DNA of 64,000 nt from Nitrososphaerota archaeon (GCA_011605725.1 JAAOZP010000017.1:374354-438353); one strand, 5' to 3'; shown: positions 2,270-63,334, counted from the first letter of the stretch. Notes: generated from the sequence alone by a model not told the origin. Program-made: numbers and translations.

Positions 2270-2285
2270 TTTAGCGCACGCTAAA
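2270..2285. promoter_or_regulatory. 16-bp imperfect palindrome TTTAGCGCACGCTAAA just before the dinB start
   Basis: 7-bp arms with CA centre, about 20 bp downstream of TATA-like TTTAAAAG (2248-2255); last base is the A of the dinB ATG. Confidence 0.55.
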
Positions 2286-3427
2286 TGAGCCTTTGGAAAA
2301 ACCCTGTCGAAAAGCAGGCGTCGCAACCCAGAGTTATAATGCTCGTTGACCTAGACTATTTTTTCGCGCAGTGCGAGGAAGTAAGGAATCCTTCTTTAAG
2401 AAACAAGCCTGTGGTTGTATGTGTGTACTCTGGAAGAAGTGGGGAAAGCGGTGTTGTGAGCACTGCAAACTATGAGGCTAGGAAATACGGTGTTAAATCA
2501 GGCATCCCTATCACCGTGGCTAAAAAAAGGCTGGCGAATGTTGACGCAGTATTTCTCCCTGTTGACCATGATTATTACGACAGGGTTTCAGAAGAAGTGA
2601 TGAATATCCTTAGGAATCATGCTGATGTCTTCGAGCAGGCGGGGGTTGACGAAGCCTACTTGGATGTGAGCGAGAGAGTTGGAAGAAGCTTTGATAAAGC
2701 CAGGGAATTAGCTGAGAAGATAAAGGAGGAGGTGAGGAGAAGCAAGGGGTTGACATGTTCAATAGGCATCGGTCCGAATAAGCTTGTCGCTAAGATTGCT
2801 GCCGACAGTCAAAAGCCGGATGGCCTAACGGTTGTTAAACCCGAAGAGGTTCAAGGCTTCCTTTCACCCCTGCCGGTCAACCGGTTAATCGGAGTCGGAG
2901 CCAAGACCCAGAGCCGGATGGAGAGCCTAGGCATTAAGACGATCGGCGACCTAGCTGGTTTTAGTGTTCAGAGGCTCGTTGAGCTTTTCGGGGAGAAGCT
3001 TGGCATTTACTTCTATAATGCTTCCCATGGGGTAGATAACAGGCCTGTTGAAGAAAAAGGTGAAACGGCATCCATAAGTAGAATATCGACTCTTAGGGAA
3101 GATACTCGCGACACAGAGGCTATTATGAGAAAGGCTGGTGAGCTTTGCGACGAGATTCAAGCTGAACTCGCCCGGCGTAGGCTAAAGGCTAAGCAGATTG
3201 GAATAATAGTTATTTCTAAAGATACTAGTGTTCACAGCAGGTCGAAAACCCTGGCACAGCCCACGAGTAATCCGGAGGCGCTTAAAAAGGATGTGAGAGA
3301 ACTGTTTGAAAGATTTCTGAGGGAATCCGGGCTTGAAGCGCGAAGAGTAGGTGTGAAGGTCTCAGGCTTCGTTAGAGGAGACAGTCAGAGAAGACTGGGA
3401 AGCTTTATTCAGGGCGAGGCAGAGTAA
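2285..3427 (+). CDS. dinB: DNA polymerase IV (Y-family, DinB/Dpo4)
   Basis: VDLDYFFAQCE, STANYEARKYGV, GVDEAYLD, KPDG motifs, little-finger RRVGVKVSG. Confidence 0.96.
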   Translation: MSLWKNPVEKQASQPRVIMLVDLDYFFAQCEEVRNPSLRNKPVVVCVYSGRSGESGVVSTANYEARKYGVKSGIPITVAKKRLANVDAVFLPVDHDYYDRVSEEVMNILRNHADVFEQAGVDEAYLDVSERVGRSFDKARELAEKIKEEVRRSKGLTCSIGIGPNKLVAKIAADSQKPDGLTVVKPEEVQGFLSPLPVNRLIGVGAKTQSRMESLGIKTIGDLAGFSVQRLVELFGEKLGIYFYNASHGVDNRPVEEKGETASISRISTLREDTRDTEAIMRKAGELCDEIQAELARRRLKAKQIGIIVISKDTSVHSRSKTLAQPTSNPEALKKDVRELFERFLRESGLEARRVGVKVSGFVRGDSQRRLGSFIQGEAE

Positions 3428-3705
3428 TACTTCCTCAAACATCCAGGCAATCCGTCACCACAGGCTTCCGTCAGTAGTGTGCACCGGATCTTCCGGAGAC
3501 GAAGACAACGATACCAGCCATGGTTTGTCTTAGACACCGCATCCCGCCGGCTAATCCATATTCAAAAACCCTTAACCTCCCTGTTCCACCGGTTTTTATG
3601 CGCAGAACCATTGTCCTAATTGATGCTCATTTTCACACAACCCTCTCCCTCAAACGTTTACCTGCCTCCGTATTTTTAAAGACGGTTTCAAACGGCTTTT
3701 CAGCC

Positions 3706-4668
3706 ATGATGACGGAGTGCTCGCTTGAGGATATTGACGGCGTTGGGCCTGCGACGGCGAGGAAGCTCAGGGAAGCTGGCTTCGTAAGCATTGAGTCCCT
3801 AGCGGTTGCAACAGCATTCGAGATCTCCGAGGCTACTGGAATAGGCTATGATACTGCTCTCAAGATCTCCCAGGCTGCCAGGGAGCTTGTCAAGATAGAC
3901 CTGGTTACTGCAGACGAGGTTTTGAAGAGGAGGCAGCAGGCCCAGAAGATCACGACTGGAAGCAAAGCCTTAGACGCTCTTCTCGGGGGAGGAATCGAGA
4001 CTCAAGCCATAACGGAGCTTGTTGGAGAATTCGGAACCGGGAAGACCCAGCTCTGCCACACTTTATGCGTGACAGTTCAGCTTCCCAAGGATAAGGGCGG
4101 GTTGGAGGCCGGCGCGTTATTCATAGATACTGAGGGGACGTTCAGGCCTGAGAGGATTGTTCAGATAGCTAGGAAACACAGGCTTGAAGCCGAGAAGGCT
4201 CTTAAGAACATTATCTACGCTAGAGTTTACAACTCTGATCATCAGGTTCTCTTGGTTGACAAGGCTTGGGAAATATGCAGTCAGCACCCAATAAGGCTGA
4301 TTATCGTAGACTCTCTGACAAGCCAGTTCAGGGGAGAGTATCTTGGGAGGGAAGCGTTAGCCTTAAGGCAGCAGAGGCTTAACGGCCATGTTCACAAGCT
4401 GCTTAAGTTGGCTGAGGCTCTTAACCTTGCCGTTGTCGTTACTAACCAGGTTGTCGCTAACCCTGGCCAGTTCTTCGGAGACCCCAACAAGCCGGCAGGC
4501 GGGAACGTAGTTGCGCATGCAAGCACCTACAGGCTGTTTCTAAGGAAGGGTAAGGAGAATACCCGTGTTGCATGCCTCTTCGACGCTCCACACCTGCCTT
4601 ATGGGGAGGCTTCTTTCCTCGTTGGTGAAGGCGGGGTTGTGGATTCGCCAGGATCCGAGTCTAGTTAA
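3706..4668 (+). CDS. radA: DNA repair and recombination protein RadA
   Basis: HhH N-domain GVGPATARKL, Walker A GEFGTGKT, IDTEGTFRPER, IIVDS; start moved from ORF-track 3520 to in-frame ATG 3706 downstream of TTTTTAAA. Confidence 0.95.
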   Translation: MMTECSLEDIDGVGPATARKLREAGFVSIESLAVATAFEISEATGIGYDTALKISQAARELVKIDLVTADEVLKRRQQAQKITTGSKALDALLGGGIETQAITELVGEFGTGKTQLCHTLCVTVQLPKDKGGLEAGALFIDTEGTFRPERIVQIARKHRLEAEKALKNIIYARVYNSDHQVLLVDKAWEICSQHPIRLIIVDSLTSQFRGEYLGREALALRQQRLNGHVHKLLKLAEALNLAVVVTNQVVANPGQFFGDPNKPAGGNVVAHASTYRLFLRKGKENTRVACLFDAPHLPYGEASFLVGEGGVVDSPGSESS

Positions 4669-5443
4669 ACGGTACTACGAGTCAGCAAGTATTCCGGTAA
4701 ACCTGCCCTGGAAACTTAGCAGGAAGCATATCAGGATAGTTACTCGAGACGGGCGTTTCATAAAGCTTAACACGCTTAGAAACAGGATAAACTCTAAAGC
4801 ATTATGGAGGCTCTGCGCCAAGTATGCTCCTACGCACGTCTGCATGAGCGTGCTCGACTACCTTTCCCCTGAGAAGGTTGGGCTGAGTAGCGAAGCAAGA
4901 CATGCCTACCCTGTTGGCGGAGAGTATGTTGTCGACGTTGACAACTCCCTGTTTAGAGGGATAGATAGCCACGAGCATCCCAGGACACTGGTCTGCTACG
5001 AGTGTCTAGAGATTGTTAAGAAGTACACCATTAGAATCTGCGAACTCATCGAGGAGAACTACAGCAACATAATTATAGTTTTCAGCGGCGTAAGGGGCTT
5101 CCACATTCATGTGCTCGACTTTCAGGCTGGAGACTGGGCTTCCTTCGACGGGCACAACCTGTTTAAGAGTCACAAGGCCGCCAGGTTTCGCTACACCCTC
5201 CACCTCTCTAGGATGCTTGACACGCTTTTAGATAAGTCCCGTTTCACGCTCTCAGTAGACCCGATGAAGGCTATAGCTGTTCCCTACTCTCTCAACGCCT
5301 CCACCATGCTGGTTTGCAGACCCGTAGGAAGCAGAATAGACCTTGAGAGGAAGAGCGTAACCAAGATACTCGACGAGGCAAACCCGGCTCTATTAATATG
5401 GCCGGTTAAAGCCATCTCTGAGCAACACGTCGAGTTTCAGTAA
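4637..5443 (+). CDS. Archaeo-eukaryotic primase (AEP) superfamily protein, divergent PriS-like primase/polymerase
   Basis: EYVVDVD (motif I), FSGVRGFHIHV (motif II), SVD..AVPYSLN (motif III region), H/C cluster HEHPRTLVCYEC; likely TTG start 4637 with GGTGA RBS overlapping radA end. Confidence 0.8.
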   Translation: MWIRQDPSLVKRYYESASIPVNLPWKLSRKHIRIVTRDGRFIKLNTLRNRINSKALWRLCAKYAPTHVCMSVLDYLSPEKVGLSSEARHAYPVGGEYVVDVDNSLFRGIDSHEHPRTLVCYECLEIVKKYTIRICELIEENYSNIIIVFSGVRGFHIHVLDFQAGDWASFDGHNLFKSHKAARFRYTLHLSRMLDTLLDKSRFTLSVDPMKAIAVPYSLNASTMLVCRPVGSRIDLERKSVTKILDEANPALLIWPVKAISEQHVEFQ

Positions 5444-5587
5444 ACCATTTACGCTAAAAACACCGTAGGCCGTATCCGCGAATGATTTTCCATGCTCCTC
5501 CTAAACGTGAAAATGCGATTTTCAGGGAAACTCATGTTCGAAGGGATAAGGAAACAGATAAATCAAAGAGCAGGCTTATTCCTAATC

Positions 5588-5989
5588 GTGGTGACTAGGG
5601 CGAGAGATTTAATCGAGGATGCTGAGGACTTCCTAGGGTCTGCTTTAGACCTGTTTAAAACCGGAAGATGGTCAAAAGTATGCTTTAACGCGCAACAGGC
5701 AGCCGAGCTTTCCCTCAAGGCGGCTTTAAATCACTACGGTGTCGAAAAAAGGACGCACTCGCTTGTCGACCTAGTCGAAGAGCTGATTAAGATAGATGAA
5801 CGGTTCAAAGCCTTTCAGGAAAACGCTAAGATACTGGACCAGTACTATATTCCGACAAGGTATGCCAATGCTTTTGCAAGCGGGCCCGCTAAGAGATATT
5901 TCACAAGGCTACAGGCTGAGCAGGCAATAAGCCTAGCGAAATCCATTTTCGAGGAGGCGAAGAAGATTGTTACCGAAGGAGAAACTTAA
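5588..5989 (+). CDS. HEPN domain protein (HEPN-MNT toxin-antitoxin)
   Basis: CFNAQQAAELSLKA, THSL, YIPTRY; GTG start inferred (ORF track starts at 5492). Confidence 0.88.
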   Translation: MVTRARDLIEDAEDFLGSALDLFKTGRWSKVCFNAQQAAELSLKAALNHYGVEKRTHSLVDLVEELIKIDERFKAFQENAKILDQYYIPTRYANAFASGPAKRYFTRLQAEQAISLAKSIFEEAKKIVTEGET

Positions 5990-6398
5990 GAACATCGCCT
6001 ACGAGAAGGTTATGGAGTTTCTACGTCAAGTCGAAAAGCTTAAGCCGATGCTCATCGTGCTTTTCGGCTCCTACGCTAGGGGGGACTTCACTGAGAAGAG
6101 CGACATAGATGTGTGCATAGTGGCTGAGAATCTTCCCGAGAACATTTTCGAGAGGAGGAGCCTATCCGGGCTTTACAGGGTAGACAATCTGAGGGCCGTC
6201 GGATATTTCCCGCAAGAGTTTCTAGAGGAATTAGAGAAGCCTAACTTCTTCCTGTACGATGTGCTTGAGGACGGCATAATTATTCACTACGACAAGTCTT
6301 TTCTGGAAAACGTAATGGAGAAAAGAAACACGGTTAAAAAGAAAATGGGTTTAGTAAGGGAAAGCGACGGCTGGAGGATAATGAGAAAAGAGAAATAA
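5967..6398 (+). CDS. Minimal nucleotidyltransferase (MNT)
   Basis: LFGSYARGD..SDIDV; overlaps HEPN gene. Confidence 0.9.
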   Translation: MLPKEKLKNIAYEKVMEFLRQVEKLKPMLIVLFGSYARGDFTEKSDIDVCIVAENLPENIFERRSLSGLYRVDNLRAVGYFPQEFLEELEKPNFFLYDVLEDGIIIHYDKSFLENVMEKRNTVKKKMGLVRESDGWRIMRKEK

Positions 6399-6665
6399 AG
6401 CAGACGCGTCTTTAAACCGTGAGAGAATGAGGAAACTATAATAGCGCGTGCTGAATTTTAGCCCATCCCGACTTGGGCACGGGATGCTGATCTAATGTTT
6501 AGCAGTATATTCTCTTAAGGCTTAGCGCAACCCTACTCCTTTTTAAGTATTATACAGCGCATATTAGAGTTTCGAGGCCAGAATACTTACGATGGCGCAT
6601 GCTCACAGATACGGGAGCCCCCAGCGCGCTAGCCTAGCTTTCAATACTGGTTTCTAAAAACATTC

Positions 6666-7078
6666 TTATTTTTCAGCACTGGAGGTAATCCAGATTCTTT
6701 TAATCCCTCTAACCTTGTCGAACTCCCTGTCTTCGAAAACTATATTACTTATCCCGGCTTTCTCCATCGTTGCCAAGTGTATAGCGTCAGAGGTTTCAAA
6801 CCGTATTTCAACAAGTATTTTTCAGCGGGCTTTGAATCCTTCTCTTCAACAGGCAAGACTTCAGCGTAGGGCAGCACTATGTTTTTCAAGAAATCTAGAG
6901 TTGTTTCATACGACACTCCATACTTTCTCGATATGTAAAGCACCTTATCTATCACAAGCATGCCCGTAAACAGCTGTTCTTCAAGAAGTCTTTTAAACAG
7001 CCCTTCTACCAGCCTTCTTTCATCATCCACCATAGCGTTCAAGTATATGAAGAGGCAAGCATCTAGAAAGGCTTTCAA
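6666..7078 (-). pseudogene. vapC: VapC/PIN toxin with 1-nt frameshift near 6790
   Basis: MKAFLDAC N-terminus; alternative frame restores SDAIHLATMEKAGISNIVFEDREFDKVRGIKRIW to TAA at 6666-6668. Confidence 0.8.
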
Positions 7079-7356
7079 CCAGCGTTCTCCTCAAACTCCA
7101 TTTCTAAATAGGCCTTACTCAGGCCCCCCAGTTTCAGACCAGAAACCCCTATCCTTCTAATCTTTTCAACATGCTCCTTAAGCCTTTTCATTATTTCCTC
7201 CTGAGAGGGTTTTCCCCTTATCAGGATTCCTTCAGAAGTGAGTTCGATCGAAACCTTCTCTCCCTCCACTATTCCATACCTGTCTCTAAACACTTTAGGG
7301 ATGAGTATTTGACCCTTTTCTCCAACTTTTACCTTGAGTTCAACCATGGTTTCCAA
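7075..7356 (-). CDS. AbrB/MazE-type antitoxin (VapB)
   Basis: KVGEKGQILIPKVFRDRYGI..G; directly upstream of the PIN gene. Confidence 0.88.
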   Translation of the reverse strand: METMVELKVKVGEKGQILIPKVFRDRYGIVEGEKVSIELTSEGILIRGKPSQEEIMKRLKEHVEKIRRIGVSGLKLGGLSKAYLEMEFEENAG

Positions 7357-7581
7357 AAGTTATACCTTAGTTGAAATCTTAAGCCTTTCCAACTTGAGTA
7401 GCAGCCAATGGGCACCTCCTCCTTCCCAAAGAAAGAGGCGAAAACCCTTGCTTCATCTAACAGCTTTCTCCTCAGCCCCCGCTACCTAAACCGACTCGAG
7501 AAGTATACTCTTAGTCTGAAGTTGTTTGTTTAACTCTAATTTTTCAAGCACCATACGATACAGGGCGGAGTCTACTCTGAG

Positions 7582-7773
7582 CGCGCGCGGAAAAGCTTTG
7601 AGGAGTTGCTTGATGATGCAGTCGATGACCTTAGGAACCACCTTCAGTTCGATAAGTATAAGAACGTTAAATACGGTATAGCTATAGGATTCTCATATGA
7701 TCCAGAGCAGGTGCTTGCGGAGGAGCCTGGCGTGCCCCCGCTCATAAGAGTGTATGGTAGGGGGGAGCCATAG
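7582..7773 (+). pseudogene. Headless 3' gene fragment, possibly a nuclease-fold C-terminus
   Basis: Frame RARKSFEELLDDAVDDLRNHLQFDKYKNVKYGIAIGFSYDPEQVLAEEPGVPPLIRVYGRGEP*; no start codon back to the in-frame stop at 7537; coding-like sequence begins at AGCGCGCGCG. Confidence 0.55.
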
Positions 7774-7777
7774 GGAA

Positions 7778-8443: not shown

Positions 8444-8519
8444 GATGAATTCTTGACCTACACATGTTTGAATATTGAAATAAGTACAGCCGAATAGAAC
8501 AAAGAAATTATTTATTTAA

Positions 8520-8534
8520 TAAAAAAGAAAAAAA
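8520..8534 (-). terminator. Oligo-U terminator after tRNA-Gln
   Basis: A-run on + strand (T-run on -) immediately after the encoded CCA. Confidence 0.6.
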
Positions 8535-8662: not shown

Positions 8663-8687
8663 GCCTGTTTCGATGTTTCTTTGACGA

Positions 8688-8959: not shown

Positions 8960-8976
8960 AGTAATCCTATTTATAA

Positions 8977-16919: not shown

Positions 16920-17836
16920 TCTCCGCCGGAGGAATCTTCCATTTTCTATCGTAAGTCATGAAGCCATTAACCTCGCCTTCAACACCGTAAAGCTGAGTAT
17001 GGCAGAACCGCAGACACGTGGTTCACGCATTATCGTCAGCGTCACGTCGCGGTACTTGCTGACAAACTCATACTCGTCCTCTAACGGCGGACCGTAAGCG
17101 TGAAACTCCCTGTCTATCAGCGGCGTGAAAACCTTAATGCCCCAGCCGCCGTACTCGCTCATGACCACTGGTTGGCCAGAGTATTTGAAACCCTTGAACA
17201 TAAGCGGCCTGTGCGAAGAATATGGCTCAAGTTTCTTCGCTTTCCTCCAGCCCTCGGCGAACACGTAGCCTCCCTGCCACGCCATGTAATCATGAACATC
17301 TATAATGTCTGACTCAGTATGGTGGTAGCCACTGTTGTCTATTACAAGCCTCGTTGGGTCATGCTTCTTAGTCTCCCTGTAGACTGTCCTTATGAAGCCT
17401 AGGGCTTCAGGAGTTTCACCCGGATCCCTCTCGTTGAACGAAACTCATACGGTTACGCATGGATGGTTAAAGTCCCTGTCTACGATTGTCCTCCACTCAG
17501 TTAAGAAGGGCTCAAGGTTTCGGCTTACAAGACTCACACCCCAGTCGCCCATTTCCTCCCAGACTAGAATCCTGATCTTGTCAGCCCAATACAAATATCT
17601 AGGATTCGGAGGCGCGCGTTATACCATACTACGTTGTGGAAACCCTCGTCATTTATTCTGCTCAGCCTACTCTGATACGGGAACGGAACCATAATGATTC
17701 TGTTAAAAACATCTTTAGACAAGCACCATTTTTCATCCTCCCCTGCACTCTTATCGTCGAAAGCAAACCCCCATTCACCGTTCAGGTTGATCCATCTGCT
17801 TCTAACGAAATCCGGCCTCGGAATACCCTCCGACAT
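16920..17836 (-). pseudogene. Glycoside hydrolase family 2 pseudogene with large internal deletion, nonsense codon and frameshift
   Basis: N-term PRPDFVR..WINLNGEW..VPFPYQS..VWY joined directly to PNPRYLYWAD..VWEE, RDFNHPCVTV*..NE, DPTRLVIDNSG, SEYGG; left end approximate. Confidence 0.85.
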
Positions 17837-34470: not shown

Positions 34471-34526
34471 GAGTGTAGCGTGCACTATCAGCATTAGAAT
34501 CATTTTTACGCTGCCCAGCTTATGTT

Positions 34527-34830
34527 AGCGTGCGGGCTACTCAGAATAGGGTACGTTTTCACATACGCTTTGACTCCAAGTATAAGGAGGGATTAGAGGA
34601 GATAAGGAACCTTTTAAAAGATCTAGGCTTCCGTCCCCCTGAAATCCATGAGTATTATAGGGAGGATAGAACCTATTACTATTTTATGAATCCCTGAGGA
34701 GGAACACTTAAAATTCATAGAGGAGATAGGATCTGAGAAGCCGGACCATCGTGAGAAGTTCGAGGGTCTTGAAACAAATTTATGAAGAGAAAAGAAGAAA
34801 AAGGGGAGAGGGAAGATTAAAAGAGAAGCA
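34527..34830 (+). pseudogene. Headless, frameshifted LAGLIDADG/DOD-endonuclease-like C-terminal fragment
   Basis: SVRATQNRVRFHIRFDSKYKEGLEEIRNLLKDLGF...YYYFM / IPEEEHLKFIEEIGSEKPDHREKFE resembles the second half of DOD domains; two frameshifts. Confidence 0.5.
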
Positions 34831-34842
34831 GGGAGTAAAGAT

Positions 34843-35532
34843 ATGGAAACGAGGAAATCGGCGAAGGTATGGGGATGGGGCGACAAATTTGAGGACGTAA
34901 AGATTAATTGTGAAAGATACGTGGACAGAAGGTGGACGGAGACTACGAAGGAATGCTGCATCGGCATCATGGCAAGAGAGAGAAATAAGACGATATTTTA
35001 CTTCATCGATGCATATACGAGTGACCCCAAAAGCGTTGGAAACCTGGCTGAAGGTCTATTCCAGGCAGCGCTTAGCCAAGGGGAAACTAAAGTCGACTTC
35101 GTCACAATAAGGTTCTATGATAATGTCGTATCTCGCGATATGCAGCACCGCAAGTCTATTGAGGAAATTGAGGAAGAACTCAAGAAACGCGAGAAAGTCA
35201 TTGCCAGCAGATTCATTAACGATCCGAAGGTGAGTGACGCAGCTAAGGGGAAAGAAGTTATATTTATTCCAGAGACCCGTTTGCTATGTGAGCTCAGATC
35301 TAAAGTGGCGAACAAGGTGATTATAGAGGCGGTTTATGGCTTTGGCTTTGAGGCCTTAAAGGATTTCATCAACTCTTTAGGCAATGAACTTATCAAGAGG
35401 CGTATTGCTGAAGGAGTTGCTGGTTACGAGTTGCGGGGAAGCGCTGAGGAACTCAAAATCAATGATGTTGATGATGGGTATGATGAGGTTTACGTGTACT
35501 TAGGTTTGAATCAAGCTAGCATTTTATTCTGA
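34843..35532 (+). CDS. Hypothetical protein inserted in the lysW operon
   Basis: 229-aa ORF with AT-richer codon use than its neighbours. Confidence 0.7.
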   Translation: METRKSAKVWGWGDKFEDVKINCERYVDRRWTETTKECCIGIMARERNKTIFYFIDAYTSDPKSVGNLAEGLFQAALSQGETKVDFVTIRFYDNVVSRDMQHRKSIEEIEEELKKREKVIASRFINDPKVSDAAKGKEVIFIPETRLLCELRSKVANKVIIEAVYGFGFEALKDFINSLGNELIKRRIAEGVAGYELRGSAEELKINDVDDGYDEVYVYLGLNQASILF

Positions 35533-35861
35533 ATGTTTTAGCGTGCATCGACTAGGGATGAATGGGCTTAGGTTACTTAGGGAGGCGTGAAGCATCTAGA
35601 AACTGTTCCGCTTTAAACTGATTTAATATTCTACTAGTTCTTTATTCCGCTAAAGCACCATTCTAGCGCGCGCTTTCAGATGGCTCGCATGTCTAATCTG
35701 AAAAGATTGTGAAAAATATAGTAAGCCCCCGGTTAAGGATCCAGCATGCGTCTGGCTCGTTAAACCTGGAGAAGCCTACGCACGCTGGAGGAAAAAGGGT
35801 CCTGCTGTGCAAGTTGGAGAAAAGATTCTTAAACACCTGGTTTGGAGGATTAGGAGGTAAG

Positions 35862-47382: not shown

Positions 47383-47519
47383 GGTAACAATATTAAACTT
47401 TAATCATCGTTTCCATCTTTAAAACACACTGGGGAAATACGCGTATTCTTCTTAACACACACTACGCGGAGTCCAGTATGACAATGACTCCCACCCTTTT
47501 CCTCCCGAAGGCCTCATAC

Positions 47520-48130
47520 AGGACAGCGCGCGCCCACACCTTCACCGTAATGAATCTTAACAGTTGGAAGAACCCTCGTCCTCAGGCGTAGCGCGCTGGG
47601 ATTTTTCAACAATTCCCCCTGGAAGCCTTCAAAACCCTGTAGCCGAGCAGGATGACAGCCACGCCAAGAATGAAGACAGCGGCGCAGGCTTCCCACCCTT
47701 TATGGAGGAAACGTTAACCATGAAAACCATGCTGCCGAGCACAGCCAAGCCCCCGTAGACTAGTGCGACGAGCCTAACGGACCTAAGCCTCCTCGCCGCA
47801 GCCGTGAAACACGTCCAGACGATTAGGAAAACACTAGGATAAGCTGGCCCGCGGCAAACCCGGGCAGGGATAGAGCTTTCTCCAGGAAACCGCTTACAAT
47901 GCTGGAGGACCCGGGGAGAGCAAGCATGCCCAGCGCTAGGCTGAGAAGCGCGAGAACAGTAAGCCTCTCCACGGGACACCAGCATAGCATGCTCCGCGCG
48001 ACATTAAAGCCTTACGCTCAACACTGGTTAGACGGTTGGCGACTGGGTTGGGAAACCCTACCGTTATGTTGGACTTATTCAACCTCCTGGGCGCGCGCGT
48101 GATCCAGGCGCCGCCATGTTTTCAACCATC
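47520..48130 (-). pseudogene. Mosaic of membrane-protein and other gene remnants
   Basis: Broken hydrophobic frames (LTVLALLSLALGMLALP; VFLIVWTCFTAAARRL..VALVYGGLAVLGSM) and an RBS+ATG start near 48128 cut by a GCGCGCGC tract. Confidence 0.45.
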
Positions 48131-52448: not shown

Positions 52449-53345
52449 TTAGCGTAAGCACGCGCTATTTATGCTTTTCAGGCGGGAGAACTCGAATATT
52501 GAAACACGCGCTGAAAACTGAGTCTAACTACAATTCTGGCCAAGGCCCAGCAGTTCCACCGTGCAAAAATAATTGGCTTCGCGCTACCGAGTATTTTCCT
52601 CCATCACCTTCCCCATCCTTCGCCGCTCAATCTTCAAATGTCCCTCAGCACATGCTCGTCTTAAAACATGATAAGAGCGCGCGCTTCAAACCCTGTATTC
52701 ACCAATGCCACTGTCTCGAGAGACTTGCCGTTTTCAAAACTATCCTTATCTTAACCCTTACACCCGCTTTTCATTTCACTCAGATACCCGGCTAAATCCC
52801 TAGGCCTTATGCGGCCAATCCTGGACCTGCGTCTAACCACTATGCGTCCAACTCGAACCCTGCGAGCCTCCACTCGAAACCCTTGGTTGCTCAAGTCAAC
52901 AGTATTCATCCGACTGACTAAACATCCTACTCGCCGCATATAAACCTTAGCTTGTTCCAACCAATTATACGCGTGACTCATCATGAAAACTACCTGACTC
53001 TCCACGTATTTCCTCGAGTGTCTGAAGCACGCGCCTTATCCCTTATCCTCCGTATCTTACCGATAAGTGCTTTTTCGCAAACTGTTAGCGCACGCGCTTA
53101 ATTCAGAAACCAAAAAACACCCGATAAAGAAAACGTGCGCGCGCGCTAGACGATAGCGCGCTAGGCAGTTGAATAAAGCGGGGGTAAAGCTTGTCTCGCC
53201 CTCTTTCCTTGGGGAAGAAATAGATGGCTTCTAAAAGCTTGAAGCACATCGCGCTGGTTTCCCAATCCTCTTCACCATTCCTAAGAAAACGAAGCTAGAT
53301 GCTAGGCAACCATGCCGACCGCCGCAACCACTATAGCATGCGCGC
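52449..53345. repeat. Cluster of short alternating purine-pyrimidine palindromes separating unrelated DNA pieces
   Basis: AAGCACGCGCTA 52456, AGCACATGCT 52647, AGCGCGCGCT 52676, AGCACGCGCC 53026, TTAGCGCACGCGCTTA 53085, ACGTGCGCGCGCGCTA 53133, TAGCGCGCTA 53154, TAGCATGCGCGC 53334. Confidence 0.7.
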
Positions 53346-54089
53346 CTCCACGTCCCGGATAACCGTTTTAAAACGTGGAACGAAGGTTGCTACTGGTTTC
53401 AACTCCTCCACCCATGTGTTCTCCAGCTCCCTGATCTTCCTTCTAAACTCCTCCGAGCTGAAAACAGTCTTATAGTAGCTTAGCTTAGTGTTGACCAGCT
53501 TTAAATCCATTTTCACCCCCTTCCTGAGCAGGAACCATAAGTCATAAAGGTCGCTGGCCCTGCCACGGTAGAAAATTGCTCTAACCTTCTCTGCAAGAAT
53601 CTCCTCCAGCCTCATCACCTGCACCAGGTAGGGTCTCACATCAGGATATATCGGCACAATCTCCCTTACTTCCGGCTCCAAAACCAGGTCTCTTCTCAGG
53701 CTGACCTCCACCCTCAACAGGGTTATGCTCCTGTCAGACCCGTTGAACAGAGGACCCTTAATCCTTAAAACCAGTGTTTTACTAATGTCTTTAAACTTCT
53801 CCACCCTAGAAAACTCCGCAGCCAAACCAAAAACCTCCATGTCCCTCACAATCCTTTTCACAATCTCCTCCTCACCATTGTTTCTAGAAGTAAAATCCAG
53901 GTCTAGGCTGAACCTGTTCAAGCCGTAAACCTTCTGCAGAGCCGTGCCACCTTTAAACACAAGCTCCCCCTTGGATTCAGCTGAGAGAAACAAGAGGAAA
54001 ACATGCTGAATATAATCCTTCTCCGTCTGCCAAAGATTAAACCCGGAAGCAGCGGTTAACTCCTGAAGCTGACTCCTGTCAAGCATCAC
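53331..54089 (-). CDS. AbiEii-family nucleotidyltransferase toxin (type IV TA)
   Basis: EKDY, FKGGTAL, RFSLDLDF, AEK.RA, DLYDL. Confidence 0.92.
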   Translation of the reverse strand: MMLDRSQLQELTAASGFNLWQTEKDYIQHVFLLFLSAESKGELVFKGGTALQKVYGLNRFSLDLDFTSRNNGEEEIVKRIVRDMEVFGLAAEFSRVEKFKDISKTLVLRIKGPLFNGSDRSITLLRVEVSLRRDLVLEPEVREIVPIYPDVRPYLVQVMRLEEILAEKVRAIFYRGRASDLYDLWFLLRKGVKMDLKLVNTKLSYYKTVFSSEEFRRKIRELENTWVEELKPVATFVPRFKTVIRDVEARML

Positions 54090-54802
54090 TCAAGCACCTC
54101 GTTAACAATAATCCTCCATTTCCCATTCCTCTCGCCAGCAGGAGGCTTAAGCGGATTCAACAGCCCGTAATTATTATCAATCAGATTTTTAAAAGAATCA
54201 TAAAGATTTACGCCGGTAAGCTCGAGCAAGTACCCTAGTCTTTTCACCACCGTTCTCGAGCCGAGCCTCACAGCATACCTCATAAGCTTCCCATGATCCA
54301 GCTTCGCCTCCCTCAACACGGAAAAGGTTTCAGACACAGGACAGTACTTCGGAAGCAACAGACTGTCTAGAATCGCTTTCTCAACCTCCGCAATAAAAAC
54401 CGTCTTACCCTCCACATACTCCCTCAAGTATCCGAAGAACCTTTCCCCAGAAAACTTGACAAACCTAATCCGGAAGCCCCCGTACAGAACCTCCTTCTTC
54501 TGCTTCAAGCACACGACGAAAACCGTTGAAGGAATCCGCGTAGTCAGCGAATAGTAAGAGTATGCGGAAATAAAGGAAACGTAGGACGGATAAACAAGGA
54601 GAGAAGCCACGCTGAAAACACTCTGGTTCGGCAGAGAATACTTATTCCTCTCAACCCTAACCAGAAGACCCTTCTCCACCAGCCTGTTCAGCAAAACCTT
54701 AACATAAGCTTCATCCCTATTCAACACCCTCACCAAGTCGCCTAAAGAGAAAACGCTAATCCTAGAATCCTGCAGCACCCGGACGAGATCGCTACTCTTC
54801 AC
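54086..54802 (-). CDS. AbiEi-family antitoxin / transcriptional regulator
   Basis: N-terminal wHTH (L.RLVEKG...RVERNKY), SYVSF.SA, EKAILD, KRLGYLLE. Confidence 0.88.
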   Translation of the reverse strand: MKSSDLVRVLQDSRISVFSLGDLVRVLNRDEAYVKVLLNRLVEKGLLVRVERNKYSLPNQSVFSVASLLVYPSYVSFISAYSYYSLTTRIPSTVFVVCLKQKKEVLYGGFRIRFVKFSGERFFGYLREYVEGKTVFIAEVEKAILDSLLLPKYCPVSETFSVLREAKLDHGKLMRYAVRLGSRTVVKRLGYLLELTGVNLYDSFKNLIDNNYGLLNPLKPPAGERNGKWRIIVNEVLE

Positions 54803-54809
54803 GAACTTT

Positions 54810-54851
54810 CATCGTTTTCCGTAAATTTAAAGTTATCATTTTTGATAACTA
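54810..54851. repeat. 42-bp direct repeat copy 1 = abiE promoter with operator AGTTATCA-tttt-TGATAACT
   Basis: CATCGTTTTCCGTAAATTTAAAGTTATCATTTTTGATAACTA; 40/42 identical to 58345-58386. Confidence 0.85.
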
Positions 54852-55107
54852 CAAAACTACATTTTATCGAAGCCAAAGACACACTCAAAGCCACGAGAAA
54901 ACAGTATTTAAATTACGCAACTTCCAAACAGCGCGCAAGCAAGCGAACCCGTTATTCAGAAAACGTTAAAACCATTCTAAGCCGGAAAAACCATAGTAAA
55001 ACCAGTATTGTGTACGCTGTAAAAGCACTCGGGTTTTTCAGATTTTTCAGAATTAATCAGAGATAATCTTTTAAGTCTGATTATGCAATGACAAACCGGT
55101 GAAATAA

Positions 55108-55362: not shown

Positions 55363-55774
55363 CACATCCTTCATACTACCATCCCTAGGGATCGACACGG
55401 GAAAGGAAGTGTCGAAGGGCCTAAGAACGCTTGCGGAAGCCGAAGCGGAAATACATTACTCGCGCTTCAGCATACTTGAATCACTCTGGGTGGCTGCTAA
55501 AGTAACTGGAGGAATAATCGATGAAGCCTTTAACACAGGACTGAGAAGCATCCTTGAAGGCGACAGGTACATGAAGATGGAGGAGGATTCCAAGGTGTTC
55601 AGCGAAGCCCTAAGACTCTACACACAGGGCCACAGAGACATGATCGACAACATACTCTACGCAGCCTCAGTCAACTTCGACCTCAAGCTACTCACAGTAG
55701 ACAAGGAGCTAAAGGAATTCATACGCAAGAACGGTTTGAAAGACACGCTTATAACGCCAGACCAACTAACATAG
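55325..55774 (+). CDS. vapC: VapC/PIN toxin
   Basis: LLDTSF, SILE, D.IDN..YA, LLTVD. Confidence 0.88.
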   Translation: MKNRQTKPRILLDTSFILPSLGIDTGKEVSKGLRTLAEAEAEIHYSRFSILESLWVAAKVTGGIIDEAFNTGLRSILEGDRYMKMEEDSKVFSEALRLYTQGHRDMIDNILYAASVNFDLKLLTVDKELKEFIRKNGLKDTLITPDQLT

Positions 55775-55999
55775 CACGCGGCGCCAGACAGCTTTGCATT
55801 ACGGCATTATGTAGCAGGCGCACCACCGGCAAAGGAAAACCACACATACCTATGGTTAACCATAGTTCCTCCAGGCGTGTAGCAAGCAACTACAACCACC
55901 CTTTGAGGCTAAAAGAAAAAACTATCGGTGGAAACGAAAACTTACCTCATCCTTCACAAGAATGCTTGCGAAAACACTTGAATCCAGAACTTGCAAAAA

Positions 56000-57746: not shown

Positions 57747-57892
57747 AGACGCACACTAGAACTTTCCTCCTTATCGAGATTCCACTCGGGATCTTCGCGC
57801 ACCAGCGGATATTTTTTCCTTCGTTACCTCCCACCCATTGTCTCTAACAACACTTTAAATCTCGAGCGCCATATCTCTGAGAACCATTATCT

Positions 57893-58256
57893 TTAGCTTC
57901 TAGTTAATAGTACGACTTTAAGATGGCCATAAACCTCTTCAACCGTCTTGAAATCCCTATCCGTAGTCACAATCTCCTCAACACCATTAGCCACAGCGAT
58001 GCCGGCGATCAAAACTTAATAACGTTAACAGGCCTACCAGCCCTAAGGAGCATCCCAGGATTTCAACAGCCTTCTCCGAGAATTCTCGCCAAACATCAAG
58101 AGATTCAAGCCCTTGACCAGCCTCCTGAGCACCCTTCCCTCCTTAACAAGCTCCCTGTGATACATCCTGGAGAAAAGCTCGAAGCGAGTAATCGTAGTCG
58201 TGCAGAACCCTTCTTTCGCAGGCCTATCAACAATACTCTTAGCCTCAGAACCCCCT
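57893..58256 (-). pseudogene. Degraded VapC/PIN toxin
   Basis: Broken frames TTTITRFEL, GRPVNV, LIAGIAVANGVEEIVTTDRDFK; N-terminus missing. Confidence 0.7.
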
Positions 58257-58344
58257 GAGAATACTTATTATCGCCCAATCGTCTTAACTATAACAAGCAG
58301 CTGAATAAGGCTGGAGCAAAGCTTGCCGCGCGTGGTAAACCCTA

Positions 58345-58386
58345 CATCGTTCTCCGTAAATTTAAAGTCATCATTTTTGATAACTA
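58345..58386. repeat. 42-bp direct repeat copy 2
   Basis: CATCGTTCTCCGTAAATTTAAAGTCATCATTTTTGATAACTA. Confidence 0.85.
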
Positions 58387-58445
58387 TGTTTCAATAGTGC
58401 AGACTTAACCGGAAGCTTTTTAAGCACGGTATTCAAAATAAAGCC

Positions 58446-59615
58446 ATGTTAAACATTAAGAAGGGTTTCGCCCTGTTCTTGGCTTCTATCTTCATTCTCA
58501 GCATCACACCCTTCGTTGCAGGAGCAACCCCATCTAATAAGGTCGCAGTTATAGTGGGTTTTAAGCAAGAGCCGAATCCACAGCTCATAAGATCCCATGG
58601 AGGCGAGGTAAAATACGTTTACAGGTACATTCCAGCCATAGCCGCTTCATTACCACCACCCGCCATAGATGCCCTACGGAAGAACCCTGAGATTGCCTAC
58701 ATAGAGCTAGACCATGAAGTCCGCGCCATACCCTTGGCTAAACCCACACCCCCGCCCCAGCCAGCCCAAAATACTCCTTGGGGTGTTGCTAAGATAGAAG
58801 CGCCTAAAGTTTGGAACGTCGGGTACAAGGGTGCAGGCGTAAAGGTGGCCATATTGGACACAGGAATAGACACGAAGCATCCAGACTTGACGGTCATGGG
58901 CGGTGCAACCTTCGTCAAGGGCACTAGAAGCTACAACGATGATAACGGTCACGGCACCCATGTGGCTGGGATCGTGGCTGCGCTGGACAACAGCATAGGA
59001 GTTGTCGGCGTGGCGCCGGAGGCTGAGTTGTACGCGGTCAAGGTGCTGAATAAGCAGGGTTCTGGATGGGTCAGCGACGTCATAGCTGGCATCGAGTGGA
59101 GCATAACCAATGGAATGCAGGTAATCTCCATGAGCTTCGGCTCAACCTCAGACTCTCAGGCACTTCACGACGAATGCGACAAAGCGTATTATATTGCAGG
59201 CATTGTGCTGGTAGCTGCTGCAGGAAACGATGGGCCGGGTGAAAACACGGTAAACTATCCAGCAAAGTACAGCTCAGTGATAGCTGTGGGCGCAACCGAC
59301 GAGAACGATAACGTGGCTGATTGGAGTAGTAGAGGCCCGGAACTAGAGTTAACAGCTCCAGGAGTTAACATCTACTCCACGTACAAGGGAAGCACCTACG
59401 GAACGTTAAGCGGCACATCAATGGCTTGCCCACACGTAACCGGAACCGTGGCGCTTATTCTAAGCAAGAACCCCAGCTTAACACCAAGTGAAGTTAGAGG
59501 CATATTGCAGCAAACGGCGGTAGACCTAGGTCAACCAAGATATGATTTAACTTACGGGTATGGGCGGGTTAACGCCTCCGCTGCCGTAGCTGCAACACCT
59601 TCACGTTCACCTTAA
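58446..59615 (+). CDS. Secreted subtilisin (S8A) with I9 propeptide
   Basis: Signal peptide, ILDTGI, HGTHVAG, GTSMACPH triad. Confidence 0.96.
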   Translation: MLNIKKGFALFLASIFILSITPFVAGATPSNKVAVIVGFKQEPNPQLIRSHGGEVKYVYRYIPAIAASLPPPAIDALRKNPEIAYIELDHEVRAIPLAKPTPPPQPAQNTPWGVAKIEAPKVWNVGYKGAGVKVAILDTGIDTKHPDLTVMGGATFVKGTRSYNDDNGHGTHVAGIVAALDNSIGVVGVAPEAELYAVKVLNKQGSGWVSDVIAGIEWSITNGMQVISMSFGSTSDSQALHDECDKAYYIAGIVLVAAAGNDGPGENTVNYPAKYSSVIAVGATDENDNVADWSSRGPELELTAPGVNIYSTYKGSTYGTLSGTSMACPHVTGTVALILSKNPSLTPSEVRGILQQTAVDLGQPRYDLTYGYGRVNASAAVAATPSRSP

Positions 59616-59661
59616 AGACAACCTTTCTCCTTTTTTCGCTTCGATTGCTAGAGAGGAGGTT

Positions 59662-60060
59662 GTGAGCAAGATGGAAAGGAGAATCATCGTTGAGGTTCAA
59701 ACGGATAAAGACGAGTATACGCTTTATGAACCGGTGCAGATGACACTGAAAATCTGGAATAAGGAGACTAAGCCTATAGAACTCGTTTTTACATCAGCCC
59801 AACGCTACGATTTCATAGTTTTGAAGAACGACGAGGAGGTTTGGCGCTGGTCCAAAGATAAGATGTTCGCCATGGTTCTGAGCTCCCTACTCTTAAAACC
59901 CCATGAGAAGAGAGTCTATACAGAAACCTGGAAGACACCAGCAGCCATCCCTGGAGAGTATAAAGTAGTAGGAGTAGTCACAAGCCGACCAGCCTTTAAA
60001 GCAACATCCACGTTCAAAATACGAAGCCCCCAATCCCAGTCCCCCCATACCTACATCTAG
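59662..60060 (+). CDS. BsuPI-like proteinase inhibitor domain protein
   Basis: L.FTSAQRYDF.V....EVWRWS..KMF pattern; directly after the subtilisin. Confidence 0.75.
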   Translation: MSKMERRIIVEVQTDKDEYTLYEPVQMTLKIWNKETKPIELVFTSAQRYDFIVLKNDEEVWRWSKDKMFAMVLSSLLLKPHEKRVYTETWKTPAAIPGEYKVVGVVTSRPAFKATSTFKIRSPQSQSPHTYI

Positions 60061-60291
60061 AAGCCGCAACCCAAGAAGGCAGGCGACCCGCAGGTTTGGC
60101 CGAGACGGCTAAAAAAAAGCCTCCCGAGAAACCCGCAAGACAGAGCACGCGCTTAAACCTCTCTAATCCTATTCATTTCCTTAAACCAGACCATATCCTT
60201 AAAAAAGGAGAAAACCGTTTAAAAAGGCCAGAAAGCGTTCGCAAAACCTAATCCTAAAGCTTAACAATGTTTCTCAGCCTTACTTTTTCGT

Positions 60292-60495
60292 ATGAGGACC
60301 TTTACCGTTGCTGTTGAAAGAAATGATGAAACAGGTCTATATGTGGCTCAGTGCCTCGAGATTCCCCAGGCCATATCACAAGGCAAGACTGAAGAAGAAG
60401 CCATAAGAAACGTGAAGGAGGCTATTGAACTAGCCTTAGAGCATTTAGGAGAAAGAATGGCGAAGTGCGCGCTTTTCCTCCGGCTCAGACAATAA
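60292..60495 (+). CDS. HicB-family antitoxin, orphan, possibly C-terminally clipped
   Basis: YVAQCLEIP..ISQGKT.EEA..N.KEAIEL; sequence changes character at AAGTGCGCGCTT (60463). Confidence 0.8.
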   Translation: MRTFTVAVERNDETGLYVAQCLEIPQAISQGKTEEEAIRNVKEAIELALEHLGERMAKCALFLRLRQ

Positions 60496-60549
60496 TCCAA
60501 CAAGCACACCAATTTAGATTCATCTGATCAACATTTTAAGGGAAGAAGT

Positions 60550-61938
60550 TTAAAAACCAATTTTTTCGAAATCCTCCAAGTCAAAGACAAGATAGCCTTT
60601 TTCTCGCAAATCCTTCTTGTCCTTTAGCCTTTTACCAATTAAGCAAAAATACTCCTTTCTTTTCGCATTAAACCATTTCACTACACTAGCCTTCTTCTTC
60701 AGTCTCTCCAATATCCTTTCCGCTTCACTTTCATCTAGATCCTGCCATTTTGCTTCGCAGAATAGAATTCTCTTTCCCTCTCTGTCAAACGCCACTATGT
60801 CTATTTCCTCATCCTTCTCCCACCAAGTACCAATATTTAAAAGCTTAAAAGGCGTCAAACCTTTCAGGCTTAACTCGTATAAAAAACCTCGTGAAACATC
60901 TTCAAATTTTTTCCCGATAAACGTGTTAAAATCTTTTTTAATAATGCCCATAACCTTCTTAACATTTCCGAGTTCTAAATCACTCTTATACGGGTAGACG
61001 AATCGGAAGTAAAAATCGAAAAAGTTATCTTTTATTTTGTAGATCGTCTTTTTCGTCGCCCTTTTCTCTGTAATCGGATGAACTTTCTCCACAATATCTA
61101 ATCTTATGAGAACATTCAAGTATTTCGGTAAATCTTTTGCTTGTATTTTAGAGAAATTCGCGATTTCACTCAATCTACTGTTTCCTCTCGCTATTGCCTC
61201 AAGTATAGAAAGATAAGATGAATAGTCTCTCAACTCCTCCCTCAGTAAGAATTCAACTTCTTCATATAGAACCTCCCCTTTAGTCAAGATTTTCTCCTCT
61301 ATGTTTGTGTAAATGTCTTTCCTATCATCAAACGTATTAAGGTAGAAAGGTATTCCACCAAGAATCGAGTAAGCCACCACTCTCTGTTCCGTCGAATAAT
61401 TGGGGAAAAACTGTTTAGCCTGATTAAATCTTAAGGGAGATAGTTTCCACTGTCCCGTTCTCCTACCATATAAAGGAGACCTGTAGGATAATATGCTCTC
61501 CATCATTGAAACGAGAGAACCGCAAAGGATCAACATTATATTCTTATCCTTAAGAACCTCGTCCCAAATCAGCTGGAAGACGGAGGGAATCGAATCATCT
61601 TTTTCAACCAAGTATGAGAATTCATCAATAACAGTTACAATTTTCCTCTTATTCAACCTAATTGCAATATATGTAAAAACATCGTCGAAATTCCTCACTT
61701 TCGGCGGCACGTCGCCAAAAAATTCAGCAGCTATGTTTGCAAACCTCTCCGCGTTCAATAAACTGCCCCTTCTATCTGCAAGAAAATAAATATGGTCTTT
61801 ATCTTTACAGAATTGCTTAATCAGCTCCGTCTTCCCCAATCTCCTTCTCCCATATATGACTATCAGCTGCCTCTCATCACTATTGAACTTTTCCTCTAGA
61901 AATTCCAATTCCCGTTCCCTGTCGATAAATCGGCTCAC
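60550..61938 (-). CDS. Archaeal ATPase with DUF234 PD-(D/E)XK-like C-terminus
   Basis: FIDREREL, YGRRRLGKT, IDEF.YL, SPLYGRRT, GGIPFYL, EIDIVA...CEAKW; AT-rich. Confidence 0.92.
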   Translation of the reverse strand: MSRFIDRERELEFLEEKFNSDERQLIVIYGRRRLGKTELIKQFCKDKDHIYFLADRRGSLLNAERFANIAAEFFGDVPPKVRNFDDVFTYIAIRLNKRKIVTVIDEFSYLVEKDDSIPSVFQLIWDEVLKDKNIMLILCGSLVSMMESILSYRSPLYGRRTGQWKLSPLRFNQAKQFFPNYSTEQRVVAYSILGGIPFYLNTFDDRKDIYTNIEEKILTKGEVLYEEVEFLLREELRDYSSYLSILEAIARGNSRLSEIANFSKIQAKDLPKYLNVLIRLDIVEKVHPITEKRATKKTIYKIKDNFFDFYFRFVYPYKSDLELGNVKKVMGIIKKDFNTFIGKKFEDVSRGFLYELSLKGLTPFKLLNIGTWWEKDEEIDIVAFDREGKRILFCEAKWQDLDESEAERILERLKKKASVVKWFNAKRKEYFCLIGKRLKDKKDLREKGYLVFDLEDFEKIGF

Positions 61939-62293
61939 AAAGATTATCTTTTACATCCGAATTTATAAACTTAACGCTCAACAACACCCTGATCAACACC
62001 CTCCCGGCACGCGTTAAAAACCGTAAACAAGAGGCGAAAACACACATCCAAGCAGACACATAAGCAACACCACAATTAAACCACCCCGCGCGCCATCCCA
62101 CAACCCTCCAAGACGACAATAACAGACTTTCAAGAACACACAGCCCCCACCCATACCACATACAGAATACAAACCACCCAAACCATACCCTTAAAAAGCA
62201 AAAGACCATTCAAAAAAGTCAGAAACCAAATAAAAACCCATGAAAAACACCCCGAAAAACCAGCAGAAAAAACAAAAACCATAAGGAAACCAA

Positions 62294-62330
62294 TATTTAA
62301 ATACACAACCACCCCCTTTATAAAGAGGGG
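62294..62330 (+). promoter_or_regulatory. tbp promoter: TATA (TATTTAAATA) plus downstream palindrome CTTTATAAAG flanked by CCCC/GGGG
   Basis: TATA at 62294-62303; perfect 10-bp palindrome at 62316-62325 just before RBS and ATG. Confidence 0.55.
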
Positions 62331-62333
62331 AAA

Positions 62334-62912
62334 ATGCAAACACAAGCAGAAAAACCACCCGAAAAACCAATAGTAGAAATCCAAAACGTAGTAGCATCAG
62401 TAATCCTAGACCAAAAAATAGACCTAAACCAAATCGTCAAAACCTTCGAAAACGTAGAATATAAACCCGACCAGTTCCCAGGCCTAGTATTCAGACTAGA
62501 AAAACCAAAAACAGCAACACTAATCTTCAGCTCAGGAAAAATGGTCTCCACAGGAGCAAAAAGCGAAAAACAAGCACACGAAGCAGTCCACAAAATCGTA
62601 AGAGAACTCCGAAGCAAAAAAATACTAACAGGAAAAACAAAACCACAAATCACAGTCCAAAACATCGTAGCATCAGCAACACTACCCGGAAAAATAGACC
62701 TCGAACACGCAGTCACCGCACTAGAAAGAACAATGTATGAACCTGAACAATTTCCTGGCCTTATTTATAGAATGCATGATCCTGATGTAGTTATATTATT
62801 ATTTGCTTCTGGTAAACTGGTTTGCACCGGCGCGGTTAACGAGAAGATGGTTTACGACGCGGCGGAGAAGCTTATGAACGAGCTTATTCAAAAAGGATTA
62901 TTGATTAGATGA
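62334..62912 (+). CDS. tbp: TATA-binding protein
   Basis: Two repeats QNVVAS/QNIVAS, Y.PDQFPGL/YEPEQFPGL, LIFSSGK/LLFASGK. Confidence 0.97.
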   Translation: MQTQAEKPPEKPIVEIQNVVASVILDQKIDLNQIVKTFENVEYKPDQFPGLVFRLEKPKTATLIFSSGKMVSTGAKSEKQAHEAVHKIVRELRSKKILTGKTKPQITVQNIVASATLPGKIDLEHAVTALERTMYEPEQFPGLIYRMHDPDVVILLFASGKLVCTGAVNEKMVYDAAEKLMNELIQKGLLIR

Positions 62913-62965
62913 ATTTTAAAATATTTTAACTTAAGGAGGAAAAAGAGGATTAAAAAGGATAGGTC

Positions 62966-63334
62966 ATGATAATGTATAAACGAAGAACCTATAAACGTAG
63001 AGGTAGACAGGTTATAGGTTTTTATAAAGATACGAAAGGAAGGACTAGACCTATTACCTTAAGAAAGGGAAGAAAGAAGGGGCCTGCATTTCCTCATCCA
63101 AAGGAATTAACCAAAAAGCAACTGAATGTCGTTATCTCTCTCGTCTTAAGCCAAGCTCCTATCGTAAAAGAACTTCACTCAGCCTATATCCTTGCTGACA
63201 CCATATACGAGAACTGGGACCTAGTAACTCAACTATATGATACATATGAGGAAAAAGGATGGCAAGGAGTAGCAAACATTATCGGAAGCAGTATTGCTCA
63301 GAATGCTTCTTCTGCTAGCGCGCGCGCTTTTTAA
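62966..63334 (+). CDS. Hypothetical protein with very basic N-terminus, probably 3'-truncated
   Basis: YKRRTYKRRGRQVIGFYKDTKGRTRPIT; ends in SARAF* encoded by TAGCGCGCGCGCTT. Confidence 0.6.
   Translation: MIMYKRRTYKRRGRQVIGFYKDTKGRTRPITLRKGRKKGPAFPHPKELTKKQLNVVISLVLSQAPIVKELHSAYILADTIYENWDLVTQLYDTYEEKGWQGVANIIGSSIAQNASSASARAF

Follow-up and report, generated by a model that had tools for sequence, protein, structure and literature searches.

The window analysed here is a stretch of 64,000 nucleotides (C7:374354-438353) of the draft genome G000, which comprises 2.23 Mb with about 46% GC and is 93% complete. The host, an uncultured hot-spring archaeon, is Brockarchaeota-like, and close homologs of the window proteins are labelled Candidatus Brockarchaeota. 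Dispersed over the window are short palindromic runs of alternating G and C, termed patches or scars below, which are considered together with a gene for a stand-alone PriS-like archaeo-eukaryotic primase-polymerase (AEP).

About 30 strain contigs (93-100% identity) and four sequencing runs (X1-X4) were compared with the window, the data being at contig level. L-numbers designate strain or homolog loci and W-numbers the window coordinates of junctions. The following patches and uncut parental sites lie in the window; no strand is assigned to any of them.

2271-2284: old patch with one transition, directly 5' of the dinB start; same allele in nine strain loci
6442-6453: old patch with one transition, downstream of the MNT gene
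7581-7589: patch at a join; strains L295 and L297 run on into unrelated sequence, and a headless gene fragment begins right after
17612-17619: patch-like run; word in window
34476-34487: old patch just past the lysX stop
34525-34533: decaying patch, GCGC in five strain loci and GTGC in the window
34666-35368: uncut parent of 703 bp, lost in L001, which has 9 new bases, CGCGCGCGC, instead; window ends without GC run
35538-35546: decayed patch; word in window
35664-35675: perfect patch, intergenic; word in window
47525-47533: patch; word in window
47589-47597: short patch; word in window
48090-48101: patch, known also as an allele with a 2-base slip; run X3 joins 47400 to 48091
52456-52466: old patch; strain comparison
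52677-52684: patch joining two sources; left parent L298 and right parent L006 both continue without GC run
53026-53034: old patch; word in window
53085-53098: old patch; word in window
53138-53147: fresh patch, with 10 bases where the uncut allele (L010, L013, L298, L299, runs X1 and X3) has a single one
53628-54080: uncut parent of 453 bp, abiEii, deleted in L006-L008, which have AGCGCGCG in its place; L009 shows the left end
54580-54858: uncut parent; run X4 skips it and joins the ends through a decayed patch of 10 bases
55772-55780: decayed patch, its TAG being the vapC stop codon
56365-56374: patch; word in window
57783-59952: uncut parent of 2,170 bp, missing from L010 and run X3, where the 10-base TAGCGCGCAC seals the deletion
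58378-58381: uncut parent of 4 bp; L006 has a 17-base TA(GC)7T patch instead
60144-60154: old patch; word in window
60463-60474: old patch; word in window
63316-63329: join at which about 890 bp of L302 are lost; new bases at the left end, while the right end reuses an older tract, one GC longer

The gene for TFB (1142-2074) and that for TBP (62334-62912) lie within scar-rich accessory regions, and almost all strains examined (L006, L300-L303) differ in the segment that follows TBP.

Sequence and placement of the patches

The original prediction had described a dispersed palindrome in which only the alternation of purines and pyrimidines (RY) is kept; the words cited are present at all 16 single positions, and the cluster at 52456-53345 is present too. 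Genome-wide, GCGCGCGC is the top over-represented 8-mer of G000, with 458 occurrences on both strands against 15.9 expected from an order-3 Markov model (29-fold), and under the same model AGCGCGCGCT occurs 176 times against 1.7 expected, so that the proposed enrichment holds over a modelled background. The runs conform to the consensus (T)A-(GC)n-T(A), and their length peaks at n=4, that is (GC)4. At 395 run ends the flanking position -1 is A in 91% and position -2 is T in 53%, with no information beyond this TA.

Enrichment of RYRYRYRY 8-mers falls with their A/T content, from 28.8-fold for none to 3.25-fold for one, 1.36-fold for two and about 1.0-fold for three or more, and other dinucleotide runs are not enriched. 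The degenerate variants are (GC)n decayed by transitions (C>T/G>A). The suggestions that any purine/pyrimidine alternation belongs to the family, and that a Z-DNA-prone structure rather than a sequence is recognised, therefore had to be abandoned, since alternation beyond decayed (GC)n is not enriched.

Runs of at least 8 bases are concentrated outside genes. Of the 201 in G000, 121 lie outside open reading frames (ORFs), a fraction amounting to 10% of the bases, and ORFs of at least 200 aa hold just 27 although they make up 76%. Where a run does fall into a long ORF, it is mostly within 60 nt of the ORF end (18 of 28 cases), and 350 kb of conserved-gene interior contained 2 runs. Gaps below 1 kb account for 29% of the spacings against 9% expected, in agreement with the predicted clustering in non-coding accessory regions. 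The distances between the motif and TATA-like words give a flat histogram without any fixed offset; the motif is thus not a transcription-factor site, an alternative that the prediction itself had named. Library adapter sequence left at the ends of contigs C5 and C14 of G000 is unconnected with the motif.

Patches at strain junctions

The strain comparison shows deletions, from 1 to about 4,000 bp long, that have been closed with 8-17 new bases found in neither parental end. Both parental ends are known, and are without GC runs, for W34665|35369, W58382|58377, W54081|53627, W59953|57782, W53138-53147, W52677 and, in run X4, 54579|54859; W54081|53627 is supported by both JGI and ENA contigs, and W59953|57782 by L010 and X3. 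As the motif is at neither parental end in most resolved events, it is inserted at the join. Strict filtering left 40 large-break ends, and 17 of these have a patch on one branch only, compared with 0.7% at random positions. Within G000, self-BLAST places 62 alignment ends near the motif, against 19+/-4 for shifted positions, and copies of 50-200 bp are bounded by patches on both sides while their source copies are not. The headless fragment noted at 7582 likewise begins at a patch, homology starting at about 7591. The predicted location of the motif at rearrangement junctions, its coincidence with breakpoints against relatives and its description as the scar of a cut-and-join pathway are all borne out by these data. 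As judged from sequence comparison, patches arise de novo at joins, have a fixed sequence, are biased in register, decay by transitions and are restricted in lineage. The motif is very probably a repair patch that is newly synthesised as broken DNA ends are joined again.

Against this stand the 23 of 40 large-break ends without a patch and the plain microhomology found at some joins, for example W53035|52760. The share of patched ends implies that a little under half of the large joins went through the patch route; patching is one route among several for such joins.

The TAG or TAA of a patch or patch-like word is often a stop codon, at 55772-55774 and, as a loose pattern, in about 30 ORFs genome-wide. 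By supplying the stop, the patch start lets truncated genes end cleanly at joins.

Read from the retained end, the added bases follow one common string, with AGCG after T, GCGC after A and CGCG after G; a fully new TA opens three half-junctions. The start is in register with the retained base at 17 of 23 half-junctions (74%; p=0.004 against a bias-corrected 44%). The left and right flanks of patches are statistically independent. This agrees with a tail being added to each end on its own before the tails anneal, and speaks against fold-back copying. Snap-back or hairpin copying of the flanks was rejected, left-right complementarity being no greater than chance.

Tailing and annealing, as deduced from the junction sequences, could proceed as follows. 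After a break and variable trimming of the ends, a polymerase would extend each 3' end along the fixed string T-A-G-C-G-C..., mostly in register with the last base. As (GC)n is self-complementary, any two tailed ends could anneal, and pairing in one of several registers would yield (GC)3-7 before gap filling and sealing by a general ligase, independently of Ku. The route would seal deletions, join unrelated pieces and capture loose fragments of 50-200 bp, and old patches would decay through C>T/G>A changes. The sequence could be specified by protein-guided choice, by self-templated slippage or by a short primase-made oligonucleotide. A telomerase-like RNA route is less likely, since no reverse transcriptase (RT; PF00078) was found in G000, G016, G471, G045 or G041; a Rfam scan of the window gave only a tRNA.

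Other origins of the patches have to be weighed against de novo synthesis. Pre-existing sites, either relaxed recombinase cores or Z-DNA-prone fragile tracts, might direct breaks or crossovers to themselves. The clustering of patches would suit such sites, and two events (W53340 and W63316) end at an older tract, showing that old patches can be reused. Both parental ends are, however, free of runs in most resolved events, RY tracts in general show no enrichment, and no tyrosine recombinase was found in the scar-rich G016. Pre-existing sites are thus a very improbable origin and largely refuted as such, a secondary role as hotspots being possible; of the original wording, "core sites or scars of a relaxed-specificity recombinase", the scars stand and the core sites do not.

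Footprints of mobile elements with ends TAGCGC...GCGCTA, excised through the GC core after adjacent deletions, would account for TA flanks reminiscent of Tc1/mariner-type excision, and repeated elements can drop out of draft assemblies. Yet no conserved sequence extends beyond TA at the 395 run ends, self-BLAST revealed no element-like repeat bounded by the motif (collapsed elements in the draft being possible), and there is no target duplication. TA is, moreover, often absent or new, patches start in register with the break, and as little as 1 or 4 bp is replaced by them, all of which renders this origin improbable. Least credible is microsatellite slippage from chance GCGC seeds, or an artefact of library or assembly. 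Although 2-base slips of existing runs do occur (48091), the parental ends lack GCGC seeds, the fixed (T)A flank and the (GC)4 peak are unlike slippage, and no other dinucleotide run is enriched. The same junction alleles, moreover, recur across JGI, ENA and Logan samples, with transition decay and lineage specificity.

A stand-alone AEP as candidate writer

Among the genes of the window, three adjoining ones bear on the question of which enzyme writes the patches.

4601-5443, + strand: stand-alone PriS-like AEP of 280 aa without PriL (PF01896 match); candidate patch writer
3706-4668, + strand: accessory radA paralog (RadA2), overlapping the AEP start and 50% identical to the housekeeping RadA (C11)
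2285-3427, + strand: dinB, Y-family polymerase; adjoins the AEP only here and is not part of the module

The catalytic motifs DxD (4931), SGxxGFH (5084) and a third Asp (5258) are invariant in 68 homologs. The predicted structure (predicted local distance difference test, pLDDT, 86) has archaeal PriS as its top fold match, followed by the LigD polymerase domain (PolDom), and DxD, SGxxGxH and the third Asp within an AEP fold place the protein in the superfamily. Its family forms a clade of its own, separate from PriS (support 100/99). On gene distribution, the AEP at 4601-5443 is the most likely writer of the patch, with the chances about evenly balanced. The statement that the window holds no recombinase was correct, yet the best candidate enzyme, a polymerase, lies inside it.

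Counts of TAGCGCGCGC range from 13 to 224 in nine genomes of the genus and from 0 to 5 in eight. The AEP is present, whole or as a fragment, in seven of the nine scar-rich members (G000, G002, G006, G007, G008, G012, G016) and in none of the eight scar-poor ones (Fisher p=0.002). Where it is whole in genus genomes, the accessory radA stands directly before it; the radA genes beside the AEP in G002, G006, G007, G012 and G016 are 82-90% identical, while scar-poor members carry only the type of about 50% identity. A second, shredded radA2-AEP module with pieces 66-90% identical lies beside a GC patch at C12:18272-18881 of G000 (L033/L076). Broken extra copies in G002, G006, G007 and G016 as well imply that the module has repeatedly been gained and destroyed.

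In the rest of the order a single genome, G023, has the AEP, and of five genomes tested for GC runs it alone shows an excess (54 against 12 in the control); the remaining four have runs/control of 103/123, 9/14, 1/5 and 1/3. The DNA around 72 metagenomic homologs (36-50% identical) contains 30 runs per 100 kb compared with 1.7 around PriS and other AEPs, a contrast to which accessory as opposed to core location contributes. In Bathyarchaeia, homologs about 40-50% identical have no radA beside them and are run-rich in genome and metagenome loci alike; being unlinked there, the accessory radA is not a required partner. Run counts are bimodal in a sample of 161 Bathyarchaeia genomes. A relaxed search found AEP traces in 11 of 24 run-rich against 1 of 30 run-poor genomes (p=2e-4, kin not being independent), and the run-poor carriers inspected are damaged: G051 is truncated, G535 has an altered motif II, and G057 and G536 hold fragments. 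G165 and G494, with identical hits and counts, are apparently the same genome and were counted once. Viral contigs are essentially devoid of the family, with one distant hit.

A very distant homolog is also found among GC runs. A GC-run-rich island at L385:14724-18039 holds a distant homolog, with an additional nurA nuclease gene and a tyrosine integrase close by. The start of the patch varies by lineage, as L085 (G041), L385 and other Bathyarchaeia loci show: it is TA-GCGC in Brockarchaeota and G471 and TA-CGCG in G041, and runs of the CGCG type lie near the distant homolog P0203. Such differences may reflect enzyme variants and could help to map specificity residues. A separate clade of 440-aa AEPs with a C-terminal extension, distinct from both PriS and the candidate family, occurs in two run-rich Bathyarchaeia (L146 in G557, L149 in G539).

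Several observations weigh against the AEP as writer. A blind test in Bathyarchaeia was weak, with the AEP in 6 of 19 run-rich genomes (E<=1e-8), and the relaxed search with GC control gave no trace in about 11 enriched drafts (G496, G529, G539, G554, G563, G566, G572, G485, G497, G524, G551), nor was any trace found in the scar-rich Brockarchaeota G009 and G010. In G471 (508 hits) the patches are as fresh as in G000, with perfect to one-transition ratios of 94:79 and 88:68, respectively; its AEP is a weak 25-aa N-terminal remnant (E=0.039) cut by a GC run, on a scaffold with 306 gaps. Conversely, G060 has few runs despite an apparently intact AEP. The scar-rich genus members resemble one clade, so that their counts are not independent, and remnant counts are inflated because accessory genes of any kind are shredded in scar-rich genomes. 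Since most homologs lie on contigs of 1-3 kb, loss during binning is a plausible reason for the missing traces, though not a complete one.

Other enzymes of G000 were considered and rejected as writers. DinB is found in the scar-poor G003, G011, G013 and G015 and is not beside the AEP in other species. Two further AEPs (C1:1195-2535 and C7:146131-147045) are spread across genus and order. G000 also encodes a stand-alone LigD phosphoesterase (LigD-PE, C7:85642-86022) and a second ATP-dependent ligase (C9:42756-44360), Ku not being found there; the two enzymes, possibly the general end-healing set of the group, occur in the scar-poor G003 and G014 too and do not track the scars. A recombinase tracking the sites, as envisaged originally, did not emerge: tyrosine recombinases (PF00589) occur in G000 (C17:8672-9895) and G471 and were not found in scar-rich G016, serine recombinases not having been searched for. 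A tblastn hit taken for an AEP remnant (G471:627489-627644) turned out to be the HAD-phosphatase part of a chimeric query and was dropped.

These data also bear on the somewhat unlikely alternative that the same de novo patching is carried out by another enzyme, be it the replicative PriSL through some property peculiar to the lineage, DinB or a protein not yet recognised, with the AEP as a passenger of the accessory gene pool. The roughly 13 scar-rich drafts without AEP trace and the fresh patches of G471 favour it, as does the preference of PriSL for GC microhomology and C insertions at breaks (PMC12019639). The very scar-rich draft G566 has Ku adjoining an AEP of about 300 aa (C129:228-1424), probably a LigD polymerase domain, and no trace of the candidate family. 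On the other hand, DinB, the two other AEPs, LigD-PE and the second ligase are shared with scar-poor relatives, and a by-eye screen of non-syntenic or scar-near proteins common to G000 and G471 gave no better candidate. PriS is universal, and its presence alone does not explain a patchy trait, although a variant PriS might. The candidate AEP follows the scars in each of three separate lineages, and scar-poor genomes seldom have an intact copy.

Returning to the candidate, it is conceivable, though tentative, that this small AEP family writes the fixed, self-complementary string T-A-G-C-G-C... onto any broken end without a nucleic-acid template and so creates universal sticky ends. The patches are real and probably constitute a repair signature that has not been described before, for which a candidate enzyme open to testing is at hand. 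Break repair in archaea lacking Ku is poorly known, and the hundreds of recognisable scars in these genomes make repair events countable, datable by their transition decay and mappable in uncultured lineages. If the proposal is true, it would mean a novel type of DNA synthesis, sequence-specific yet template-free, with its product built into chromosomes. It would also amount to end joining programmed by sequence, by which Brockarchaeota and Bathyarchaeia could delete, capture and shuffle DNA without homology, leaving a countable record. It might also provide a tool for homology-free ligation or end-labelling. The candidate being a single 280-aa protein of a hot-spring organism, it is within reach of one in vitro assay.

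Comparison with known systems

HIP1 of cyanobacteria is common in coding DNA, an abundance that the present motif does not share, 121 of its 201 runs being outside ORFs. Both are highly over-represented GC-rich 8-bp palindromes, but HIP1 is another word, GCGATCGC (PMC5861425), whereas the patches avoid conserved genes and are newly created at joins; HIP1 is also tied to methyltransferases. Site-specific recombination and integron att sites require the site in both parents, where it is missing in most resolved events, and neither target-site duplications nor element ends, as in Tc1/mariner or IS630-like transposon footprints, were seen.

Telomerase inserts interstitial telomeric repeats at double-strand breaks, 67-80% of them in register (PMC2246262). 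The defined repeat at repaired breaks, the flanking deletions, the in-register start (74% here) and decay with age are shared. The differences are the prokaryotic host, in which no RT was found and no template RNA identified, and a self-complementary repeat that could provide universal sticky ends. Protein-templated synthesis by DRT3b and DRT7 (PMC13174585; bioRxiv 10.64898/2026.04.18.719102) similarly gives sequence-defined simple-repeat DNA without a nucleic-acid template, and DRT7 has a primase-polymerase domain; these are, however, RT-based anti-phage systems producing free DNA, whereas the product here forms part of the chromosome where ends were joined, and the candidate lacks an RT domain.

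In Ku/LigD non-homologous end joining (NHEJ), and in PrimPols of mobile genetic elements with microhomology-mediated end joining (MMEJ; AgaPP, PMC11724360; IEE, PMC9943667), an AEP likewise adds bases at broken ends and bridges them. G000 shares with NHEJ a stand-alone LigD-PE and a second ligase, but these do not track the scars, Ku (PF02735) was not found in G000, G016, G471 or G045 and is present only in G566, and the fold of the candidate is nearer to PriS than to the LigD PolDom. The literature searched on NHEJ and PrimPol systems reports no filler of fixed sequence, and searches of the open-access literature gave no paper on an archaeal GC filler of this fixed kind.

In its mode of action the proposed route corresponds to polymerase-mediated end joining with filler, and its defined sequence recalls telomerase healing. 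Archaeal PriSL performs terminal transfer and anneals ends via 2-4 GC pairs in double-strand break repair (PMC12019639), and in PolpTN2 removal of the PriL-like part raises terminal transferase activity (PMC4538821). PriSL(X)-mediated MMEJ of Saccharolobus (PMC12019639; PADT, PMC3333859) resembles the proposed route in its AEP fold, 3' terminal transfer, annealing through few G-C pairs and Ku-independence in an archaeon. Its junctions, with short microhomology, mostly 1-2 bp indels and no fixed filler, differ from the 8-17 base, fixed palindromic patch present at 17 of the 40 large-break ends, and while PriSL is the replicative heterodimer, the candidate is a PriS-like protein in its own right, patchy in distribution and lacking PriL.

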